A stretch of 62,906 nucleotides of DNA, the filler included, from Thraustochytrium aureum (lineage: Eukaryota): NCBI GenBank assembly GCA_012862495.1. It is 5 parts of 4 records of this genome, joined end to end, with 100 filler letters (N's around TTAATTAATTAA, not from the genome) between each part and the next. Parts side by side here need not be neighbours in the genome. Positions count along the whole stretch, not along the records: positions 18,076 to 34,693 come from BLSG01000274.1; 4 more parts are not named here. One strand, written 5' to 3'. A program made the position numbers and the translations under genes. The notes below the pieces were generated by a model. That model ran no database searches. It had not been told where the DNA came from and saw only the letters and a program-made list of their open reading frames with translations. Below, piece after piece: positions 8,044 through 31,722 of the stretch (position 1 is the first letter of the stretch; every line of letters starts with the position of its first letter).

Positions 8044-8635
8044 CCTCGCCCTCGCGCTCTCTCGTTCGCGCTCTGCTCTGCCTCACCCACCACAATGTCA
8101 CGTTCATCCAGGGTGTGCGCCCGTGGTGCGTTTCTACAAACAACATTTTCGAGGTGTGCGCCCCGCGTGCTTCTCTCCCTTGGGTTTGGAACGCGTTTCT
8201 ATGAACAGGGCGGCGCACTCCCTTTGGAAAAGGAAGCGAGAGTGTGCGCCATGGACTCTGTTTCTGGGGAACGCAGGCGCGAGTGCGCGTGAGTTCTCGC
8301 GAACGCACGGTGGCCTGGCGAGGTGTGCGAACAGAGTGGCAGCACAGCACACGCTGGGAAGCCGCGTGCATCTCGAGGAGAGTGCGGCGGTGGTCTGCAG
8401 ACACCGAATAGCGAACGAGCAGCAGCAGCCGCCGCAGCGAACGAGCAGCAGCAGCAGCAGCAGCAACGGCGGCGGCAGGAGCAACAGGAGCAGCGGCAGA
8501 CAGCGGACGGAGACGGCGGCGCAGACCGGCCCAGAGAGCCGAGCGCTGGCCAAGACCAATTCTCTCACGCCACGCTCACGTGACGACTCACTGGTCAAGG
8601 GCTTGTAGTGCGGCGCCCAACGCTGCGCCGCGCCG

Positions 8636-10720
8636 ATGGAAGCCATGGCGGAGGAGGACCAGGTTACAGCAGATGTGGAGGAAGTGCAGGAGGAAACGGA
8701 CGGGCTGGCTGACCTGCCCGAGCCGGAGCCGCTTGCACGCAACAGGACGCAAAGCCAGCGGAGCATTTCGAGCACTTCCTCGAAACGGGGACTGGTGAGC
8801 AGCCTCTCTGGCATCCTGCGATCGTCGACGGGACGCAAGAGCAGCATCGGTAGCACGACCCTGCGGCGGGCGTTGTCCAAGACGCCCAGCTCGAGCTCAA
8901 TGAACGACCGCGAGCTGGCGAGCGAACAAGCCGATGAGGACGAGGCCGCACAAGCCCCAGAACGGGACGACGACGCTGCCTCCACCTTGACTGTTTCGAG
9001 CAAAGACCCCGCTAGCGAAACGCAGCGCGGCGTGCTCGGCATGCTGAGCGACGTGTACAAGGCCATGGTGGGCTCCAAGCTTGCCCCTGCCAACATCCCG
9101 CTGTCGGCAAAGGCGTCGCGCGGCTCGATCGTCGAGGAGCGGTCGCTCAACACCATCGTCAACCTAAACGTCGGTGGCCAGACGTTCTCAACAAGTCTAA
9201 ACACCCTCCTGAACGGCCGGTCGACCGTGCTGCGAGAGATGTTCCTCAAGCTGGAAGACGAGGATGCCGAGCCACTAGCTCGTGACAGCCAGGGCAACGT
9301 GTTCGTGGACCACGACCCGAAGAACTTTGCCACAATCCTCAACTTTTTGCGCGCCAACACACCAACCACGCTCCCCGACGTCGGATCGCGCGAGTGGAAC
9401 GAGCTCCGTCTTGATGCCGACTTGTTTGGCGTCGACGAACTCGCCGAGCAAATGGACGCCCTGCTGGCAGTGGAGCAGGCCCGCCGCGAAGAGGAGCAAC
9501 GCAAGCAAGAGGAAGAAGCAGCGAGCCGCAAGGCGACGCGGCGCAAGAGCAGCACGACCGACCTCCTCCAGAAACAGGGCCGCGAGCTGGAGCGCATGCG
9601 CGTCGAGCTGCACCGACTCCAGTTCGAAAAGGCAAAGGCCGAAGCGGAGGGACTGTTTTACGCCAACCGCAAGATGGAGTATGCCTACAACCTGATGTGC
9701 GTCGGGGTCACGGGTACCGGGAAGAGCAGCTCGCTCAACACCATCCTCGATGCGCAAGTGTGCCCAGTCAGCGGCTCGCAAGCACAGGGCACGCGCGGGT
9801 GCCAACTACGCGACGGCGTCATCGACAACACGCACTTCATCTCGTTCTTGGACACGCAGGGCCTGGGCGCAGACACTTCTGTCACGGACGAAGAGCTGCT
9901 CGAGCAGATTATGCTGAGCGCCGAGAGCATCCGGCAGATGGGGGTTGTGAACAACATCCTGATCAGCTTTGACTTGCAAAACAGGACGACGCCCGCCACG
10001 ATCGCCAACCAGCTGACGCTGTGTGAGCTGTTCACGGACCTTCGCCGCTCCTGCTTCTTGGTCTTTACCAAATGGAACACCAACTCGGTGCTCAGCGAGT
10101 GGAACCTCCCCTTGAAAAAGTGGATCCGCAAGTTTCGCCGCGCCAAGTCGATTGACAAGATCACCGCCGATCCGCCCTCCTACGAGGAAATGTACCGTTC
10201 TTACAGTGCGTATCTGCTAAAGTCGCTCTCGCTCAAAGAGGACGGCGGCGCCTTTGCCAAGATGGTGACGTTGCTCTGCTTTTTCGAGTCGCGCGTCATC
10301 TGGCTCTACAACCTCGACCCCGTGCAGATTGAGGACAAGGAGGACAACGACCTCGAGCCGTATGTCGAGTACTTGTACAACTTTTACCGCAAGCGCGCGC
10401 TCATCACGCTCAAGCGCGGGTCGACCGTGATTCATACCAAGGACCTCGCCTTCCTGCACAACGACGAGGACACCATGGCAGACGTTGCTGCTCGCCTCAT
10501 CTCGCACCGCGACAACAAGATTGGCGACCTCGAGCGCATGGGGGCCAACACGGAGAAGCGGAAGAAGCTCCGCGCCGTGTTTTCCGACATGTCATCGCGC
10601 GCCGCTGTCGACATCGAGAAAAAGGTCTACGACGTCTCGGATGGTCCAACGACGGAGATCTTTCGCCTCCTGGACCACCCGCCCGGGCGCACGCCGGACG
10701 TTGGCTGCATCGTGTCGTAG
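8636..10720 (+). CDS. BTB/POZ (KCTD-type) + coiled coil + AIG1/TRAFAC-like GTPase protein with C-terminal CaaX (CIVS)
   Basis: BTB: IVNLNVGGQTFSTSLNTL…DSQGNVFVDHDPKNFATILNFLR…DADLFGV. GTPase: GVTGTGKSS, DTQG, TKWN. Ends GCIVS*. Intact 694-aa ORF. Confidence 0.8.
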   Translation: MEAMAEEDQVTADVEEVQEETDGLADLPEPEPLARNRTQSQRSISSTSSKRGLVSSLSGILRSSTGRKSSIGSTTLRRALSKTPSSSSMNDRELASEQADEDEAAQAPERDDDAASTLTVSSKDPASETQRGVLGMLSDVYKAMVGSKLAPANIPLSAKASRGSIVEERSLNTIVNLNVGGQTFSTSLNTLLNGRSTVLREMFLKLEDEDAEPLARDSQGNVFVDHDPKNFATILNFLRANTPTTLPDVGSREWNELRLDADLFGVDELAEQMDALLAVEQARREEEQRKQEEEAASRKATRRKSSTTDLLQKQGRELERMRVELHRLQFEKAKAEAEGLFYANRKMEYAYNLMCVGVTGTGKSSSLNTILDAQVCPVSGSQAQGTRGCQLRDGVIDNTHFISFLDTQGLGADTSVTDEELLEQIMLSAESIRQMGVVNNILISFDLQNRTTPATIANQLTLCELFTDLRRSCFLVFTKWNTNSVLSEWNLPLKKWIRKFRRAKSIDKITADPPSYEEMYRSYSAYLLKSLSLKEDGGAFAKMVTLLCFFESRVIWLYNLDPVQIEDKEDNDLEPYVEYLYNFYRKRALITLKRGSTVIHTKDLAFLHNDEDTMADVAARLISHRDNKIGDLERMGANTEKRKKLRAVFSDMSSRAAVDIEKKVYDVSDGPTTEIFRLLDHPPGRTPDVGCIVS

Positions 10721-21709: not shown

Positions 21710-22536
21710 NNNNNNNNNNNNNNNNNNNNNNNNNNNNNNNNNNNNNNNNNNNNNNNNNNNNNNNNNNNNNNNNNNNNNNNNNNNNNNNNNNNNNNNNNNN
21801 NNNNNNNNNNNNNNNNNNNNNNNNNNNNNNNNNNNNNNNNNNNNNNNNNNNNNNNNNNNNNNNNNNNNNNNNNNNNNNNNNNNNNNNNNNNNNNNNNNNN
21901 NNNNNNNNNNNNNNNNNNNNNNNNNNNNNNNNNNNNNNNNNNNNNNNNNNNNNNNNNNNNNNNNNNNNNNNNNNNNNNNNNNNNNNNNNNNNNNNNNNNN
22001 NNNNNNNNNNNNNNNNNNNNNNNNNNNNNNNNNNNNNNNNNNNNNNNNNNNNNNNNNNNNNNNNNNNNNNNNNNNNNNNNNNNNNNNNNNNNNNNNNNNN
22101 NNNNNNNNNNNNNNNNNNNNNNNNNNNNNNNNNNNNNNNNNNNNNNNNNNNNNNNNNNNNNNNNNNNNNNNNNNNNNNNNNNNNNNNNNNNNNNNNNNNN
22201 NNNNNNNNNNNNNNNNNNNNNNNNNNNNNNNNNNNNNNNNNNNNNNNNNNNNNNNNNNNNNNNNNNNNNNNNNNNNNNNNNNNNNNNNNNNNNNNNNNNN
22301 NNNNNNNNNNNNNNNNNNNNNNNNNNNNNNNNNNNNNNNNNNNNNNNNNNNNNNNNNNNNNNNNNNNNNNNNNNNNNNNNNNNNNNNNNNNNNNNNNNNN
22401 NNNNNNNNNNNNNNNNNNNNNNNNNNNNNNNNNNNNNNNNNNNNNNNNNNNNNNNNNNNNNNNNNNNNNNNNNNNNNNNNNNNNNNNNNNNNNNNNNNNN
22501 NNNNNNNNNNNNNNNNNNNNNNNNNNNNNNNNNNGG

Positions 22537-22920
22537 GCCCGCTTTGCGCGCAAGGCGCTCGGCGGGGGGATGCGGCAAGCCGGCGTTCTTGCGGCTTGCG
22601 GGCTCGTCTCGCTGCGAACCATGTCGAGGCGCTTGCACGAAGACCACACCACTGCCCGCGCGCTCGCCGAGGGCCTGGCCTCGCTTCCGCACATCTCCCT
22701 CGATCCCGCCAAGGTTCGGACCAACATCATGTTCTTTGACGTCGCCGAGGGCCGCGGCGGGGAGCTCTGCGAGCGCTTGGCGCGCGACCACGGCGTCCTC
22801 GTCGGCGCCTACTCTACGAAGCGAGTCCGGGCAGTGACGCACGCTGGTGTGGACGGCGGCAAGGTGGAGCAAATCCTGGACGCGTTCCGCAGCGCGCTAA
22901 AGACAGTCTTCAAGGCGTAG
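22537..22920 (+). CDS. Low-specificity L-threonine aldolase (LtaE/Gly1 family), C-terminal part; 5' end in gap
   Basis: RKALGGGMRQAGVLAA, RLHEDH..ARALAEGL, VRTNIMFF, RVRAVTH. Confidence 0.85.
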   Translation, partial: ARFARKALGGGMRQAGVLAACGLVSLRTMSRRLHEDHTTARALAEGLASLPHISLDPAKVRTNIMFFDVAEGRGGELCERLARDHGVLVGAYSTKRVRAVTHAGVDGGKVEQILDAFRSALKTVFKA

Positions 22921-22956
22921 GCGGCCACCCGACCCTTCTACTCGCCAACATTCATG

Positions 22957-24348
22957 TTATCTTCCTCGAGTTCCGCTATTGTGCACTATTTCAGAGCTTA
23001 GTTTTGGATTGAAGAGCCGGGCGAGAGCAGTCTCGAGCGTCGGCTCGCCGATCTCCTGCAGCTCGTAAAAGACGCGCGTCGAGGGCTTGTCGATCTTGAT
23101 GATGCGCCGCAGGTCGATCGGCGTCGCGATCACCACCGAGTCGCAGTCGCACTTGTTGATCGTCTCCTCGAGGTCGCGCGTCTGCTCCTCGCCGTACCCC
23201 ATCGCCGGCAACAGCGTGCCGATGTTGGGGTACTTTGCAAACGTCTCCGCTATCTGGCCAACAACCCAGGGCCGCGGGTCCACAATCTCGCTCGCAGCAA
23301 ACTTTTGGGCCGCGATGATGCCAGACCCGAGCTTCATCTCGCCGTGCGTCAGGGTCGGCCCGTCCTCCACGCACAGCACGCGCTTGCCCGTGATGACAGA
23401 CATGTCGTCCACAAAGATCGGCGAGGCCGCGTCGACTACCATCGCTTTCGGGTTGATGCGCTGAATGTTGCGGCGCACCTCGTTGATGGCCGCTGCGTCA
23501 GCGGTGTCCATCTTGTTGATCACCACAACGTCGGCCATGCGCAGGTTGGTCTCGCCTGGGTGGTAGCCCACCTCGTGCCCGGCGCGGTGCGGGTCCACCA
23601 CTGTGATGCACAGGTCGGGCTTGAAAAAGCTAAAGTCGTTGTTGCCGCCGTCCCAGAGCACCACGTCCGCCTCCTCCTGCGCCTGGTCGAGGATGGCCTG
23701 ATAGTCGACGCCGGCGTAGATCACATTGCCCTTGATCACGTGCGGCTCGTACTCTTCGCGCTCTTCGATCGTGCAGTTGTGCTTCTTCAAGTCGTCAACC
23801 GTTGCAAACCGCTGCACGCGCTGGGCCGCCAGATCTCCGTACGGCATTGGATGCCTGCACGAGACGACCTTCTTGCCCAACTTCTTGCTGAGAATCTCGA
23901 CCACTCGCCGTGTCGTCTGGCTCTTGCCGGCGCCCGTGCGCGAGGACACCACCGCGACCACTGGTTTCGTGCTCTTGAGCATGGTCTCGTGGGGCCCGAT
24001 GATCTTGAACGAGGCGCCAGCCGCCAGCACGCGCGATGCGGTGTGCATCACGTCCTCGTGCTTGATGTCTGAGTACGCGAACACGACCTCGTCCACCTGG
24101 TGCTCGCTAATCAGCTTTTCCAGCTCGGCCTCGGGCCGGATCGGGATGCCGTCCGGGTACAGCTTGCCGGCCAGTTCGCTCGGGTACTTTTTGTCGTCGA
24201 TGCCGGGGATCTGCGTCGCAGTGAAGGCGACCACCTTGGCCGCCTCGTTGTCGCGGTACACGGTGTTGAAGTTGTGAAAGTCGCGCCCAGCTGCGCCCAT
24301 GATCACCACCCTCCTGGGCTCGCCAGCGCGGTTCGCAATCACGCTCAT
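22957..24348 (-). CDS. COG2403 / cyclic 2,3-diphosphoglycerate synthetase-related P-loop protein, ArcE (arginine synthetase)-like
   Basis: IMGAAGRDFHNFN, VVAFTATQIP, YP.ELAG.LYPDGIPI, P-loop RTGAGKSQ, RHPMPYGDL, TIEEREEYEPH, WDGGNND, YHPGETN, VEDGPTLTHGEM, LLPAMGY. Intact, intronless 463-aa ORF. Confidence 0.85.
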   Translation of the reverse strand: MSVIANRAGEPRRVVIMGAAGRDFHNFNTVYRDNEAAKVVAFTATQIPGIDDKKYPSELAGKLYPDGIPIRPEAELEKLISEHQVDEVVFAYSDIKHEDVMHTASRVLAAGASFKIIGPHETMLKSTKPVVAVVSSRTGAGKSQTTRRVVEILSKKLGKKVVSCRHPMPYGDLAAQRVQRFATVDDLKKHNCTIEEREEYEPHVIKGNVIYAGVDYQAILDQAQEEADVVLWDGGNNDFSFFKPDLCITVVDPHRAGHEVGYHPGETNLRMADVVVINKMDTADAAAINEVRRNIQRINPKAMVVDAASPIFVDDMSVITGKRVLCVEDGPTLTHGEMKLGSGIIAAQKFAASEIVDPRPWVVGQIAETFAKYPNIGTLLPAMGYGEEQTRDLEETINKCDCDSVVIATPIDLRRIIKIDKPSTRVFYELQEIGEPTLETALARLFNPKLSSEIVHNSGTRGR

Positions 24349-25428
24349 CCTCTCCTTGTCCGTTCGCTCCGCCGTTCGCTCGCTCGATCAACCAGGCGCG
24401 GCCTCGTTCGACGTGGTCTTCGAGTTGGGGGATTGATGATTGCACATAAGCCTCGCGTTGGTTGGGCTGGACCCGGCCCTCATCGATTGGAATGGAAGGC
24501 CTGCCTGCAGCGGGCGGGAACAAAGCCCCTCGGGCCGCATCTGCTGCGGCGCTTTCGACTGCGAGCCGAAACGACACCGCAAGAACGCTCCCGAAGACGA
24601 GTGATGTGTGGGCAACCAGAGCGGAACGGATCGCCCTCCAGCTTCGCCCCGAGGGCCAAGGACACGCCCAGCGCACCTCCACCGCCTGGCTTGCGGACTC
24701 CCTCGAAGAGCAGGGAACAAACACACAGGAGTTGGTTGCGGTTGATCAGGATGCATCAGTCGCCAGTTGCGGTTGATGGATTGCAGCGCTCCAACAGCGC
24801 CAGCTGTTGCTGCTGCGCCTGCAACCCGATCCGAGGTGGGTCGACCGTGGCAAGGAGATCCTCGTCAGGCCGCGCCAAGTTGGCGAACGACTCGGAGTTG
24901 GCGCTGCAACTGCGCGGGAGAGGAGATTCTCTCCGCGTATGTACCCGAAGCCGACTCGGACTTGGTATCGGGGCAAGATCTGCACTGCTCCGACCAACAA
25001 ATGCACCTGCATCAGGTCGGACGTGGTGCGCCATCGCTGTTCCCGCGCTCGGAAGGTTGCTGTGGACTCGGAGCTGGCATTCCGCGACGGCGTTGTTGGC
25101 CTTCGCGAGTGCATGCGGCGCTCATGCTCATCAGTTGCTACTCGGCTGCACTCCAAAACGTGCTGCGAGCAGCAGCAGAGTTCAACTTGGCCTGGCCTGC
25201 CTGATGCTCGAGTGAGCGCGAGTACTCCCGCCTGCCTTCGCTCGCGTTTGTTTGTTTGATTGATTGATTGAGCGCGAGCGAGCGAGCGAGCGAGCACTCG
25301 TACGACGGAGAAAAACTCGGGAGCCAGGATTGCAGCATCGACCGGCTGCCGCGGGCGTCCTCTGCCAGGTCGAAAGCCGCCCTGAGGCTCGGAAACTCTT
25401 GCTGCCCAAGACGGGCTTGGCCCACGAA

Positions 25429-26536
25429 ATGAAGGCGGCCCGTGCCGCAGAGCGTGCGCGGTGCGTCGGCTACGGCGGCATGCACGCAGCGCCGTGGACG
25501 CGCGGCGGGCCGAGCAGGAGGCGCCACGCGGCGCGCGATTTTGGCAGCAAAAGCTCGCAACGCCCACAGCGCGTGCTCGTTGCGATAGGCGGCAACTCGC
25601 TTGTCACGAGCAACAGCGACAACACGTTCGAGTCGCAAAAGGCGCTGTCCAGGAGACGGCCCGCGGCATCGCGCAGCTTGCCCGAAGCGGCTGCGGCGTC
25701 GTCGTCACGCACGGCAACGGACCGCAGGTCGGGTTTGACCTCCTGCGCAGCGAAGCAGGCGCGCGAGCGGGGACGCCCCCACTGCCTCTGGATGCCATTG
25801 ACGCGCAGACCGAGGGCGAGCTCGGCTTTTTGCTCCAGCAAGCGATTCACAACGAGCTCTTCGCCGGGGGGGCCGGCCGCTGAAATGCCCCGTGGCCTTG
25901 ATCACCCAGGTCGTCGTGGACAGCGCGGACCCCGCTTTCAAGAAACCAACAAAGCCAGTAGGCGGCTACTACGACGAGGACACTGCGCGAGACAAGATGG
26001 CACAAGAGGGCTGGGACATGCGCGAGGACGGCGCAAGGGGCTGGCGACGCCTAGTCGCCTCGCCGGCCCCCATCGAGATTGTCGAGCAGGACGCCATAAG
26101 CGCGCTCGTCGAGCACGGCAACGTGGTGATCTGTCTTGGCGGCGGCGGCATACCCGTCTTGCGCGACGAGCGCAGCGGCGCGCTCTCGGGCATCGCTGCC
26201 GTCATCGACAAGGACGCCAGCTCTGCCATGCTGGCGACCGCGCTCCACTGCGACGCCGTCATCTTCTCCACTGGCGTTCCTCAGATCTGCACCGACTTTG
26301 GCCGCCCCACCGAGCGCGCCCTGGCGCGCCTCACAGCCTCTGAGGCCCGCGAGCTCGCTGAGGCCGGCCACTTCCCGGCGGGAAGCATGGGGCCGAAGGT
26401 GGAGGCCGCCCTGTCCTTCATCAAGTCCGCGATGGGCTCAGAGGAAGCCGTGGCCATCATCACCGACCCGGCCGGGCTCGCCGAGGCCCTCGACGCGGAC
26501 TCAGCTCGGCGCACGGTCATCGCGCGGTGTGGCTGA
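25429..26536 (+). CDS. arcC: Carbamate kinase with Arg/Ala-rich N-terminal extension; two homopolymer frameshifts (A run ~25637-25640, G7 run 25866-25872)
   Basis: VAIGGNSL; VTHGNGPQVG; AQTEGELGFLLQQ; TQVVVD..DPAF.KPTKPVG; GWRRLVASPAP; GGGGIPV; AVIDKD; GHFPAGSMGPKVEAA. Start codon uncertain (25429 or 25480). Confidence 0.9.
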
Positions 26537-27284
26537 GTTGCGCGTCTTGCGAGGCCCCCAACCAACGAAAACAAGCCTGTACCGGCCTGCCAACCTTCTG
26601 CAGCCCGACCGACAAACCTGACCGGAAGAAAGGTCTGGCAGTGGCGTCCCTTGCCCGCGACGCAGGCGCGCAGCGCTGTGAACATCGCCAGCGGCAGCGC
26701 GAACCGTCGTCGTCCATCGGGATCACTATTCCCGGTCGTGATCATCGTCTCCTTCCACGCCGAAACGAATTGTTCGCAGCTTTCAGCCCAACGCAGGCAG
26801 GCGAAACTCTGCAGCTAGAGCCCCGGCCGCGGCATCCCTTGCTCCCCCCGAGGCAGGAGCGAGCGCAGCGCGGTGGACGTTTCCATCATCGCGATCATTG
26901 TCGTCCTTCCTTCCTTCCTGAACGATCATCCCCTGCGAAAACAACAACAAAAAACCATGCCCAACGAAGAAAACCAGTGCCAAGCCAGACCCGGCCGAGG
27001 CATCCCTTGGCCCGACGCAAGCGCGCAGCGCGGCCGACTCCGCGGTTGCCGTCGCGGTCCTCGTCGTCCATCGGGAACATTGTCTCTCGCCGAAAGTCTA
27101 CCATTCCGAGCCCCGTTCTGTGGCCCTGAGCAGATCCCCGAACGCGTCGGCGGCAGCGAGGCAGGCGAGCGGGCGGGCAGGCGACGGGCGGAGCGACGTT
27201 TCGAGGTGTGCTAGACGCCGTTTTTGAGCCGGGTGCGGGCCTTTAGCTGGCGCCATGTGGCGGAATGTGACATTTCGAGCGGCC

Positions 27285-28451
27285 ATGGGCGCCGCCAAAT
27301 GCCGCGGCTCGCTCGCGCAGCGCGCCTGGGCGGCGCGAGACGTGGCCTCACGCGCTCATCAACACGCGTGGGCGCCCAGGGCCATGCTGGCTGCGACGGC
27401 GGCCGGCGCTGGCGCCATCGTCGGGCTCGCCGCGTGCGAAGACGCCGAGCAGAAGGCGGTGGAGCACGTGGAGGCCAAGGACTACCAGGGCGCCAACCAG
27501 GTTGATGTCGGCGAGGCTGTCGCGCAGGATAAGGAGGAGGATAAGGAGGAAGAGGAGGAGGAGGCCCCGGCGCCGCCAAAGTGGGAGTTTGTCGAGGTGA
27601 AGAATGACTATGCCGGGGTGTTCTTGAACGAGGCCAGTAAGGCCAAGCTGCGCGAGCGCTTCCCGCCAAAGTTTGCCAACGAGGGCTACGATCACATGAC
27701 TGTCATCTTCGAGCCAACCAAAGAAGACGTTCTTGACCAGGACGACTTGCTCACAGACAACTACACGCTTCACGTGATCGCGCACGCCGAGGACGAACAT
27801 GCGCAGGCGGTGCTCGTCGAGTTGGAGCACCCCCATGTCAAGTCGCGCAACAAGTACGCGCACGTGACTCTATCGTGGGACGGCAGCCCGCGGTACGAGG
27901 CCAAGTACAGCAACATTCTGTTCAGCCGGTTTGCGGACCGCAAAGGCGCGCGGGCCGTGTTTCGGCTATCAACCGACGTGAAACAGCCCACGAGCTGGGA
28001 GGGCGAGCTGCCAGTGGCCGGGCCGTTTGCGGCCTCGCAGGGTCGCTTGGTAAATGTAGAGGAAGAGGCGATCACGCTGGAGGGCACCTACTGCCTCGCG
28101 AGCCAGTGGGACGGCGCCGCCTGCTCCTATGTGCACGAGAACGGCTGCTCGTTCTGCAAGTTCATGAAGGGCGGTCCCTGCCGCGCCGAGTTTTCTGCCT
28201 GGGAAAAGTGTGTCTCCGCCTCCCGGGAGGAGGACGGCAAGGACAGCGACAACTTTATTGACCGCTGCGGCAGCCTGACGCTTGCGCTCAAGACGTGCGT
28301 CGACGCCAACACCGATTATTACTATGCCCTCACCGGGGACGAGGAGACCGGCGCAGCCGACAGCGTCGAGGTGGATAGAGCCAGCGTCGAGGCAGAGAGC
28401 GCGGGCGAAGCCGGCGCGGAGCCCCAGAGCCCGACGAAGGACTCGATTTAG
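27285..28451 (+). CDS. Putative mitochondrial protein: presequence/TM-like N-terminus, acidic linker, 2H-phosphoesterase-like domain, C-terminal GCK/Mia40-like cysteine domain
   Basis: Two HxT motifs (DHMTV, AHVTL). C-terminal CSFC-KFMKGGP-C-x9-C…C-x9-C-VDANTDYY. Start uncertain (27255, 27285 or 27384). Confidence 0.65.
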   Translation: MGAAKCRGSLAQRAWAARDVASRAHQHAWAPRAMLAATAAGAGAIVGLAACEDAEQKAVEHVEAKDYQGANQVDVGEAVAQDKEEDKEEEEEEAPAPPKWEFVEVKNDYAGVFLNEASKAKLRERFPPKFANEGYDHMTVIFEPTKEDVLDQDDLLTDNYTLHVIAHAEDEHAQAVLVELEHPHVKSRNKYAHVTLSWDGSPRYEAKYSNILFSRFADRKGARAVFRLSTDVKQPTSWEGELPVAGPFAASQGRLVNVEEEAITLEGTYCLASQWDGAACSYVHENGCSFCKFMKGGPCRAEFSAWEKCVSASREEDGKDSDNFIDRCGSLTLALKTCVDANTDYYYALTGDEETGAADSVEVDRASVEAESAGEAGAEPQSPTKDSI

Positions 28452-28842: not shown

Positions 28843-31722
28843 CTAGATCTGGAAGACCACATCGCTCAGGTCAAGCAAAGTGCGATCCGTCTGATACACG
28901 ATCCCAGCTTGCGCGACTTCGGGCCCAAAAGCCTTGGCGACAACGTCCCGTTGCAGCGCCGGCGCAGAACCGACGACAAACTCGATTCTGGTCTCCCAGA
29001 ACTCGTCCAGCAGCTCGATGTCCAAAAGGCTCGACTGGAGGACCTCGTAAGTACAGGCTCTTAGCACGACCCACGCTTCGAGGACGTCGCCGCTGCTGTT
29101 GCGCAGGCTGGCGCGCTCAAACTTCGCCAAGCGCAGGCCCCCACTTGCACGCCTTTGGTCCTTGTCCAGCGTCCGAACGAGGACAAACTCCCCGACGCCA
29201 ATCCTCTTCTGGCCGCACCGAATGACGGAATACGTCCCAAGTTTGGTGGAGGAGCTCGGGCCCGAGGGGAAATAAACCCGGCGTTGATTGACCCAAGCAG
29301 ACTTGGCGTGGAGCAGATGAAGGCGGGACACCTCCTCTTCAGCCGCAAGCCGTGGCTGAAGCTCAAATACCTGTTTGCTGGCGAACATATAGTGGTGCTC
29401 AGCCAGGCCGCGGCGATTTGGCCGAACGCCATGAACGATAGTGTCAAACACATACGTATGCGAAACGACTTTGTGCTTGGCCGCCATGTGGGCGTACAAA
29501 TAGGACGCGAGCGGTTGGTGCACAAAGTCCGGGTCGCATACGATCAGGCTGGAGACCTCAAGGCTTGTGACCACCATAGCACCGGCTTGATGGAGCAAAT
29601 ACTCCAACTCGGCCTGAACAGGGCACGGCGCGACGTACACCCTCATGTCGCGAAATGCAAACCTGGGATTCGCTGAGGCGCGAAGCACCCATCCGTGGCA
29701 GCCGGTCTCGCTGAGCAAAGGCCCACGCGGGAGCAGGTAGTCGCGTCGGTTAGGGGTTCGCCGATTGAGGCGCGCGTCACGAACATAGTTGATGTGCGTG
29801 AGATCAATGCCGTCGACCTGCAGCGAGAGTGCACGAATGGTATAACATGCAGAGGGGCGAGCGAGAAAGATTTGGCTAACCGGGTGCTTGAAGCTGGTCC
29901 GATCCGCGGTGTCCAGGCTCTCGCCCGTCTTGTCGATTATGGTCGCACCTAGCTGACGTGCCTCCAGGATAACCGAGGCGTCGACGCCAGCCAGCACGAC
30001 CAACGTTTTCCCGGCGAGGACGTCGGGAGTAGTCGAGCCCGCATCGAGCTGGGCTGTATGCTCGGCCGCTTGTTTGATGACCGGGCCGTACCCAACAACC
30101 TTGGATGTCCGCGCTGGCGCCTCCCTCGAGTTTCGTTCGAGAGAAGCAGGAGCTGCAATGGTGGCGGCGACAGGTTGGCCAGGATGGCGCAAGGTGGGCG
30201 CACCTCCGAAGCTGCTGCTGTGAGCTGCTGGGACCGTATGCGGCCTTCCGAGCGCTGGTGTGTCTGCAGTNNNNNNNNNNNNNNNNNNNNNNNNNNNNNN
30301 NNNNNNNNNNNNNNNNNNNNNNNNNNNNNNNNNNNNNNNNNNNNNNNNNNNNNNNNNNNNNNNNNNNNNNNNNNNNNNNNNNNNNNNNNNNNNNNNNNNN
30401 NNNNNNNNNNNNNNNNNNNNNNNNNNNNNNNNNNNNNNNNNNNNNNNNNNNNNNNNNNNNNNNNNNNNNNNNNNNNNNNNNNNNNNNNNNNNNNNNNNNN
30501 NNNNNNNNNNNNNNNNNNNNNNNNNNNNNNNNNNNNNNNNNNNNNNNNNNNNNNNNNNNNNNNNNNNNNNNNNNNNNNNNNNNNNNNNNNNNNNNNNNNN
30601 NNNNNNNNNNNNNNNNNNNNNNNNNNNNNNNNNNNNNNNNNNNNNNNNNNNNNNNNNNNNNNNNNNNNNNNNNNNNNNNNNNNNNNNNNNNNNNCGCCAA
30701 TGCAGGAGCCATTTTAGTACCGCCTGGCTCGGAAAGCGACAGTGCGCGAGCGCGCTGCGCGACAGGCTTAAAGAGTGGCCAGCTAGGCCCCCCCGCCATT
30801 GAAGCGGACGATCCTCCCGCGGCTGGCACATTTGGGGCGGCAGTGTGGGGTCCAGCACGAAGGATGCTTCCTCGTTTGCGAATTTTGTCTGCAATGCTCG
30901 GAGGGAGCGCATTCACGCCGCTCGGATTTTGCGAGCTTGCCATCGCAAGGCGAACAAGATCGGCCCCCTTGGCAAGTTTCGAAGTGCCTTCCTCTGCGGC
31001 GCCGTTCTTGCCTTGCTCAGAGACACTCGAATTCAAGGCCTCCTCCGCCGCCGCTCTCGAGGCCGCGCCCTCCATGGGCGACGACACTGACTTTGGGGGC
31101 TGCGCAGTCGCACGAGGCTGGAGCTGATCAAGTGCTCCTATCTCAGAAAGACGGCTTTTCTGCGCCACGGGGCTGGCTTGGTTGCCCTCGTCTCCCGCTT
31201 GCGCTGGACCGCTCAGCTCCGTAGCCGGCGCTGCGGTTCGAGATTGAGAGATCTGAGACAAACCGGCGCCTTGTGCGAAACGCTCAGACGGGCCAGATGC
31301 AACTGCGGCCGATTTTGCTGTCGATGCTTCGTCTGCCTGAGGATCTGCAGAGTTGCCGCTCGTGGTAGCACTCGGTGGGATGCCGGCACTGGCGGCACGC
31401 GCTATGACGGTCGCAGCAGTACTCTGCGGGGCGGCTGTGCTGGAGGCGCTCGCTGCGTGGCTCGTGGGTGGATTCGATAATTCGCCAGCTGGTGCGGGCG
31501 CCTTGGCAGTTTTGGCCGTTCCCTCTGAAGAGGCAGCGCTTGCTGCGCCACTCTTGGAAGGACTCGATTCCCCGTCCGGCGCAGCGGGGGCCGTGTGGCT
31601 TGGAGCATGCAGCCCTGGCGCGCCAGCGACAGGATTTGTCGCTTTGGGGCCTTGCGCGGCACTCGCAGCCTCGCTAGGCGCGACAGCAGCAGTTTTCAGC
31701 ATCTCTGCAAATGTTCTCGGCT
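28843..31722 (-). CDS. Large hypothetical nuclear protein: low-complexity N-terminal region, tandem BRCT-like repeats and a possible BAH-like C-terminal segment; gapped, 5' end unresolved
   Basis: BRCT-like segments LAGKTLVV…ARQLGATII and FRDMRVYV…LLHQAGAMVV…VVSHTYVFDTI; YSVIRCGQKRIGVGEFVLVR resembles a BAH start; Ala/Ser/Pro-rich open frame at 30695-31722. Confidence 0.5.

Follow-up and report, generated by a model that had tools for sequence, protein, structure and literature searches.

The best-described relative of the genes reported here is the ArcE-ArcB-ArcC pathway of Thermococcus kodakarensis (PMC11032458, PMC13260591), in which the arginine synthetase ArcE (TK2200) acts with an ornithine transcarbamoylase (OTC) and a carbamate kinase (CK). 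TK2200 has an equilibrium constant of about 10 toward citrulline and ATP, a Ks for ammonium of about 100 mM and a sigmoidal response to ADP (PMC11032458), and the CK of T. kodakarensis does not supply carbamoyl phosphate (PMC13260591). We analysed a stretch of 62,906 nucleotides from the thraustochytrid Thraustochytrium aureum (assembly GCA_012862495.1), hereafter the window, in which an ArcE gene and a CK gene lie head-to-head, with 1,080 bp between their ATGs (Table 1). By analogy with T. kodakarensis, we consider it probable that this pair encodes the two ATP-making steps of a catabolic arginine synthetase pathway yielding 2 ATP per arginine.

The locus resembles the T. kodakarensis system in the full-length identity of its ArcE (62%), its motifs, its predicted fold and its partner CK. 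It differs in arrangement, as arcE and arcC of T. kodakarensis are unlinked (approximately 47 kb apart in genome G015), whereas the window genes are adjacent and divergent. It also differs in its eukaryotic nuclear setting, in having no OTC nearby and in the 46-residue extension of its CK. Metamonads and a few other eukaryotes have an arginine deiminase (ADI) pathway (PMC5052871) with the net outcome proposed here: ornithine, NH3 and CO2 are formed from arginine, and CK makes ATP at the substrate level. The first enzyme of the window pair, however, is a P-loop protein unrelated to ADI that would save a second ATP. A head-to-head arcC/arcE pair is also carried by a plasmid of Salinirubellus sp. 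SYNS196 (NZ_CP147842.1; L094:5015-7329), but its genes are 32 bases apart, their products are 56% (ArcE) and 46% (CK piece) identical to those of the window, and they are sister to the window proteins in no tree. The arcE of this plasmid is annotated as a cyclic 2,3-diphosphoglycerate (cDPG) synthase.

The initial annotation held that eukaryotic ArcE homologues are known while no eukaryotic gene cluster is known to have been described, and the literature searched agrees. The 2024 paper PMC11032458 mentions homologues in ‘a few eukaryotes’, of which it studied none, and states that roles outside T. kodakarensis are not evaluated; a literature search that lacked most subscription papers returned three papers naming ArcE together with arginine synthetase and no published eukaryotic ArcE cluster. 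The window pair is probably a eukaryotic version of a known pathway, and ArcE in eukaryotes is already in print. In a ciliate with a CK-OTC fusion, an ADI route was ruled out because ADI is missing, and the main text contains neither ‘GTPase’ nor ‘diphosphoglycerate’ (PMC13198582); in PMC4446992 the diatom CK is only listed. Atlas searches returned bacterial-dominated clusters only.

Identity of the ArcE protein

The window protein is ArcE by every sequence test available. Its open reading frame has no internal stop and is colinear with prokaryotic homologues, so that no intron is needed, and it aligns with TK2200 over 431 aa with 81% similarity and one gap. With its 463 aa and a BLASTP match to TK2200 of 588 bits (E 0.0), the protein satisfies the published cut-off for homologues (E<1e-100 to TK2200, length >380 aa; PMC11032458). 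As the TK2200 reference we took the gene in genome G015 that exactly matches both published primers; a forward-primer search across the genus gave three exact genomes, two of which were checked and match both primers, and a degenerate pattern found three Thermococcales loci. Matches of 61-64% to the window ArcE were present in 40 out of 41 Thermococcaceae genomes, 16 of which also contained a second, weak match.

These weak paralogues bear on the possibility that the protein is a cDPG synthetase (cDPGS) or a GTPase, the labels (‘GTPase’ or ‘cyclic 2,3-diphosphoglycerate synthase’) that databases give to its homologues. Solved cDPGS structures (PDB 8ORK, 8ORU, 9SXB) belong to a distant P-loop relative of similar length, which is also the best structural match. 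The predicted ArcE model (predicted local distance difference test score, pLDDT, 93.4) has as its top fold matches cDPGS (E 1.4e-16) and LpxK 4EHY (E 2.7e-9), and a likeness to LpxK has been reported for TK2200 itself (PMC11032458). Identity in the cDPGS fold match is, however, 15%, and at the sequence level the solved cDPGS gives a partial match of E 1.3e-5, below what is expected of a cDPG synthetase. Eight weak cDPGS-like paralogues from Thermococcales, one of them verified as a cDPG synthetase (E 3e-205, PDB 9SXB), served as outgroup; their identity to the window ArcE is 21-24%, against 62% for TK2200. In a quick tree of 127 rows, from which two weak outgroup rows (L145, L146) had been removed, the window ArcE fell within the ArcE group, and the eight cDPGS-like rows were split off with a Shimodaira-Hasegawa-like approximate likelihood ratio test (SH-aLRT) support of 100.

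Conserved columns, defined as those shared by TK2200 and by 95% or more of 177 prokaryotic ArcE rows, tell the two families apart in the same way. The window protein keeps 155 out of 158, including the P-loop residues among them, and the cDPGS-like rows keep 27 out of 158; the former count is inflated because likeness to the window protein was the basis for choosing the 177 prokaryotic rows. The three changed columns (K53, S135 and S342) are all conservative. A Pfam and NCBIfam scan returned no model that names the ArcE family. Taken with the identity to TK2200 and the tree, these comparisons bear out the earlier assignment to ArcE rather than to cDPG synthetase, and the protein very probably has arginine synthetase activity.

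Assembled reads from other sources refine its length. Six public runs from four studies contain parts of the stretch; X5 and X6 yielded the same tables and, as a single data set, were counted once. X1 is possibly the source sample, and X7 and X8 contributed next to nothing. That X2-X4 are RNA is a guess. The contigs give neither strand nor start, and depth was not used for ranking genes. At position 23006, contigs of X2-X4 and X5/X6 have one base fewer than the window, so that ArcE is probably about 449 aa long (stop at 23000-22998) and the last 14 residues are probably not real. TK2200 is 448 aa long, and the pLDDT of the window model drops after residue 450. The description of an intact, intronless protein of 463 aa thus stands as regards its five motifs, all found, and its lack of introns, but probably not as regards its length. 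One X3 contig (22935-24374) matches the bounds of the ArcE gene, which is no more than a hint of expression.

The carbamate kinase and its reading frame

The CK gene, which had been placed on the plus strand, divergent from ArcE and about 1.1 kb away, lies where described. It is spread over three frames in the window, with two single-base frameshifts near 25643 and 25874. As the ArcE-ArcB-ArcC pathway requires of its third enzyme, arcC models matched all three pieces: TIGR00746 the C-terminal piece with E 9e-67 and the middle piece with E 4e-17, and the first piece was matched weakly (E 0.004). Bit scores of 225 and 62, against a curated TIGR00746 cut-off of 358, come from pieces scanned separately. 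The two larger pieces match solved CKs, and the CK is approximately 51% identical to the best bacterial CKs over 323 aa.

The extra base that restores the second frame, at 25874, is present in contigs of X1-X4, a correction found in two studies, among whose runs is the one nearest to the window; at 25643 the extra base is present in X2. Over 25447-26479, an X2 contig is colinear and keeps the frame. Since contigs of other runs carry each missing base, both frameshifts probably arose in assembly, the first less certainly than the second, and the CK is probably intact. Real frameshifts, which the initial annotation had named as a threat to its proposal, are not borne out by these contigs, although for the first break the restoration comes from one run.

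Translation of the CK probably starts at 25429, because a change at 25481 removes the second in-frame ATG in the X2 strain. The extension that follows this start is basic in composition (Table 1), and we considered it as a mitochondrial presequence. In a composition control, however, 71 out of 624 stop-free stretches of 46 residues that begin with an ATG in the window were equally basic, so that a mitochondrial location of the CK is a weak lead. The X2 strain has 18 extra letters within this extension (25505-25517), with the frame kept.

Eukaryotic setting of the locus

Top ArcE matches that are mostly prokaryotic would also fit a bacterial chimera. Overlapping contigs from the public runs join the two genes to each other and to a host gene. 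On the ArcE side, the chain consists of 22631-23398 (X1), 22935-24374 (X3), 24295-24609 (X5) and 24399-25049 (X1); on the CK side, it continues with 25016-25376, a contig at about 25410, 25447-26479, 26450-26684 and 26655-26972 (all X2), and ends with 26871-27329 (X1), which reaches the GCK-domain gene. The chain is made of overlapping contigs, and both genes never occur within one contig. Codon use is host-like as well: GC at four-fold sites is 0.87 for ArcE and 0.82-0.85 for CK, compared to 0.69-0.91 for 12 further pieces of genes in the window. The best match of ArcE is, moreover, a eukaryotic transcriptome protein.

A chimera is, therefore, unlikely, since overlapping contigs of other studies tile ArcE, CK and host gene and codon use is host-like, and the data support a real eukaryotic locus. 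Together with the low similarity to cDPGS described above, this largely refutes the combined alternative that the protein is a cDPG synthetase or GTPase, or the contig a bacterial chimera, and we give it hardly any credence.

Origins of the two genes

Among 8,000 scored ArcE matches, the best was a transcriptome protein of Mucochytrium quahogii (75% identity). This thraustochytrid protein is the sister of the window ArcE (99 SH-aLRT). Ten out of 150 representatives were looked up, and further eukaryotic ArcEs, of the same family, come from the diatom Thalassiosira (P0280), the prasinophytes Pycnococcus/Pseudoscourfieldia (P0411) and the ichthyosporean Creolimax (P0294). Their identity to the window protein is 42-47%, with the diatom at 47%, and they branch apart from it in free trees. 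Approximately unbiased (AU) tests, with 16 out of 44 rows left out, mostly long or redundant, did not reject a single clade of thraustochytrids plus diatom (p-AU 0.40), thraustochytrids plus Creolimax (p-AU 0.40) or all eukaryotic ArcEs (p-AU 0.15), and are thus compatible with one eukaryotic origin of ArcE or with several. The gene was likely acquired from a prokaryote ahead of the split between this lineage and that of Mucochytrium. A divergent Logan protein (P0247, 51% identical to the window ArcE) groups with the window and Mucochytrium proteins (support 99) in the quick mixture-model tree but not in the simpler one, and is possibly another labyrinthulomycete copy. A further ArcE-like protein, P0347, carries an intein and LAGLIDADG domains before the P-loop region.

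The CK has other affinities. The nearest relatives of its C-terminal piece are bacterial (53-56% identity), with the ichthyosporean Sphaeroforma arctica in fifth place; in the tree, the CK of S. arctica, of the same family, is the sister of the window CK with a support of 98 (98/92 under the mixture model, 28 rows). The window CK falls outside the 18 arcE-adjacent or arcE-fused CK rows of that tree. In the Logan protein P0249 (766 aa), a CK (residues 3-292) is naturally fused to an ArcE (324-758), a further sign of joint working. A search for longer CKs found four fusions with other domains and named no eukaryote, which is weak evidence.

Prokaryotic loci provide a comparison for the arrangement. 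CK was found near arcE in 11 out of 94 prokaryotic arcE loci, many of them short-flanked; ten of these pairs are tandem, and one, on the haloarchaeal plasmid described above, is head-to-head. Among 251 Myxococcota genomes, CK is present in 61 of the 68 with ArcE and in 37 of the 183 without it, counts that are not corrected for relatedness. In 20 of the 61 with both genes (picked by eye from tables), arcE and CK lie within 1.3 kb, always in tandem, so that 30 out of 31 adjacent prokaryotic pairs seen are tandem. In prokaryotes, the two genes are thus functionally paired. None of the 251 genomes qualified as a single donor: the best identities were 66% for ArcE and 50% for the CK piece, and no genome was close for both.

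The proposal of a horizontally acquired module, therefore, holds in part. The placement of ArcE among prokaryotic sequences agrees with transfer of that gene, but joint acquisition is not supported, given that the CK groups with S. arctica and not with CKs adjacent to arcE, and that prokaryotic pairs are nearly always tandem. Given the divergent layout and the separate tree affinities, the pair was apparently arranged within a eukaryote rather than copied as an operon.

A probable catabolic arginine synthetase pathway

In the pathway that we favour, modelled on T. kodakarensis, ArcE would convert arginine, ADP and Pi to citrulline, NH3 and ATP at high ADP, with a phosphorylated isourea intermediate suggested by the P-loop fold. 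An unlinked OTC encoded outside the window would then split citrulline into ornithine and carbamoyl phosphate, from which CK would transfer phosphate to ADP, giving ATP and carbamate. The net yield per arginine, without oxygen, would be 2 ATP, 2 NH3, CO2 and ornithine. An N-terminal presequence is absent from ArcE, both in the window and in the Mucochytrium protein, so the ArcE step is probably cytosolic; if the CK is mitochondrial, the mitochondrial membrane would have to be crossed by citrulline and ornithine in exchange. The head-to-head layout probably arose in the eukaryote, in which a tandem operon would not be translated, and would allow joint control. The catabolic direction is suggested by the published equilibrium constant, ADP response and ammonium Ks of TK2200 and by the failure of the T. 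kodakarensis CK to supply carbamoyl phosphate.

Several points weigh against this pathway or the history proposed for it. The first CK frameshift, at 25643, is covered and corrected by X2 alone, and the X2 strain is 1-2% different from the window. No OTC or aspartate carbamoyltransferase (ATC) match was found in the 62.9-kb window. No CK from Mucochytrium or another thraustochytrid was present among the 120 near-length matches listed or the four longer ones. ArcE, as placed among prokaryotic sequences, has no well-supported prokaryotic sister, and the papers searched report no enzyme assay for any ArcE other than TK2200.

The same enzyme activities could serve another end. A true arginine synthetase might draw on stored or scavenged arginine mainly to provide ornithine (for proline and polyamines), ammonia and carbamoyl phosphate, with CK disposing of the surplus and ATP being secondary. 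Loss of arcE in T. kodakarensis causes proline and pyrimidine defects (PMC11032458), while loss of arcC has little effect (PMC13260591). ATC, moreover, lies near arcE in nine of the 94 prokaryotic loci (L024, L032, L034, L038, L050, L059, L064, L079 and L089), about as often as CK or OTC (seven), which fits a supply of carbamoyl phosphate by ArcE for pyrimidines beyond Thermococcales. The neighbour in the window, however, is CK, a consumer of carbamoyl phosphate, and neither ATC nor ornithine aminotransferase. Eukaryotes, too, normally have their own carbamoyl phosphate synthetase (CPS). On balance, we regard a mainly ornithine-supplying role as unlikely.

The reverse, anabolic direction would have CK make carbamoyl phosphate, OTC make citrulline and ArcE fix a second ammonia to form arginine in one step. 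ArcE is reversible, and arginine synthesis from citrulline and ammonia has been observed in vivo (PMC11032458), but an equilibrium toward citrulline and ATP, an ammonium Ks of that size and the inability of CK to replace CPS in T. kodakarensis make it very improbable. One-step ammonia assimilation, which the initial annotation had offered beside ATP production, is thus the less likely direction on published equilibrium and kinetics.

Finally, the two genes may be neighbours as a leftover of transfer or through chance rearrangement, with no joint control, and the CK may be decaying in this strain. The two frameshifts in the window, of which the one at 25643 is corrected in X2 only, the lack of a Mucochytrium CK among the matches listed and the wide difference in X2 contig depth between the genes, although depth cannot rank genes, would all agree with this, as would a (GAGC)-type run near each gene's start, two separate promoters fitting equally well. 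In the other direction, the 25874 break is corrected in two studies, the X2 contig over 25447-26479 keeps its frame, and another window gene (188-1856) is likewise split across two frames. For an assumed genome of 10,000-20,000 genes, one given gene would be adjacent by chance in about 1-2 cases in 10,000, and one of ten plausible partner genes in about 1-2 in 1,000, that is, a chance of approximately 1e-3 to 1e-4. Had a single transfer left the pair behind, tandem genes with a shared donor would be expected, which the trees do not show. We, thus, hold a relic or chance pairing to be improbable.

A catabolic ArcE-CK pair would offer a direct answer to an older puzzle. In a 2016 survey (PMC5052871), ADI was not detected in Sar (stramenopiles, alveolates and Rhizaria), while CK was present in diatoms and dinoflagellates; a nuclear ArcE beside CK could feed such CKs left without ADI. 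A wider and more tentative reading is that head-to-head ArcE-CK is a recurrent eukaryotic unit, built repeatedly or passed among marine osmotrophs and algae such as thraustochytrids, ichthyosporeans and diatoms, which might run a two-ATP, oxygen-independent fermentation without ADI, split between cytosol and mitochondrion, and explain orphan CKs of Sar. If the pathway runs, it would be a new substrate-level ATP route in eukaryotes and would change models of arginine and nitrogen turnover in marine protists. Thraustochytrids are cultured industrially under oxygen limitation. The window ArcE is practical for testing, being intronless, close to a characterised enzyme and probably mesophilic.

Intergenic region and neighbouring genes

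Table 1. Features of the ArcE-CK locus in the T. aureum window (positions count along the whole stretch)
Feature	Position	Strand	Remarks
Ungapped contig stretch	22535-30270		flanked by N runs, one ending at 22534, the next starting at 30271; order: threonine-aldolase-like end (+), ArcE (-), spacer, CK (+), GCK-domain gene (+)
PLP (pyridoxal phosphate)-dependent threonine-aldolase-like gene, C-terminal part	22535..22920	+	PF01212 E 1e-13; tail-to-tail with ArcE
ArcE (arginine synthetase / ATP-forming arginine deiminase) orthologue	22957..24348	-	463 aa as assembled, intronless
Divergent intergenic region	24349..25428		1,080 bp, 63% GC; covered by overlapping contigs of X5, X1 and X2
Shorter (GAGC)-type run	24364-24389	other strand	Just upstream of ArcE start
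Simple repeats (GTTT)3(GATT)3 and (CGAG)5	~25246-25295	+	Short
CK	25429..26536	+	ATG 25429, stop 26536; ~369 aa read through
Basic N-terminal extension of CK	25429..25566	+	46 residues; 11 R+K vs 2 D+E
GCK-domain gene (host anchor)	27255..28451	+	PF07802 E 9e-18

From its layout alone, the divergent spacer is a plausible candidate for a shared promoter region, with the bidirectional promoter judged on the same ground. A sigma-70 scan, with a model not apt for a eukaryote, found no promoter. The host-type microsatellites reported between the genes are present but short, and a (CGAG)7 run also occurs elsewhere in the window, at 95-122. A 14-nt motif is repeated three times in mid-spacer (24888, 24952 and 25064; span 24888-25077), a possible regulatory site noted without a chance estimate.

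The N-run ends and the PF07802 match agree with the earlier description of an ungapped contig that also carries a eukaryote-type GCK-domain gene. This gene is connected to CK via overlapping X2 and X1 contigs, and contigs of X1 and X2 bridge the threonine-aldolase-like neighbour to ArcE. Clearly eukaryotic genes elsewhere in the window encode strumpellin, VPS15, an Alg9-like transferase, Jhy and p25-alpha domains. The closest match of ArcE and the long, uninterrupted GC-rich reading frames likewise suggest a thraustochytrid. The Alg9-like mannosyltransferase gene is the one at 188-1856, where its two frames probably reflect an assembly frameshift or a short intron. At 8609-10717, a BTB/POZ domain is fused to an AIG1-type GTPase domain.

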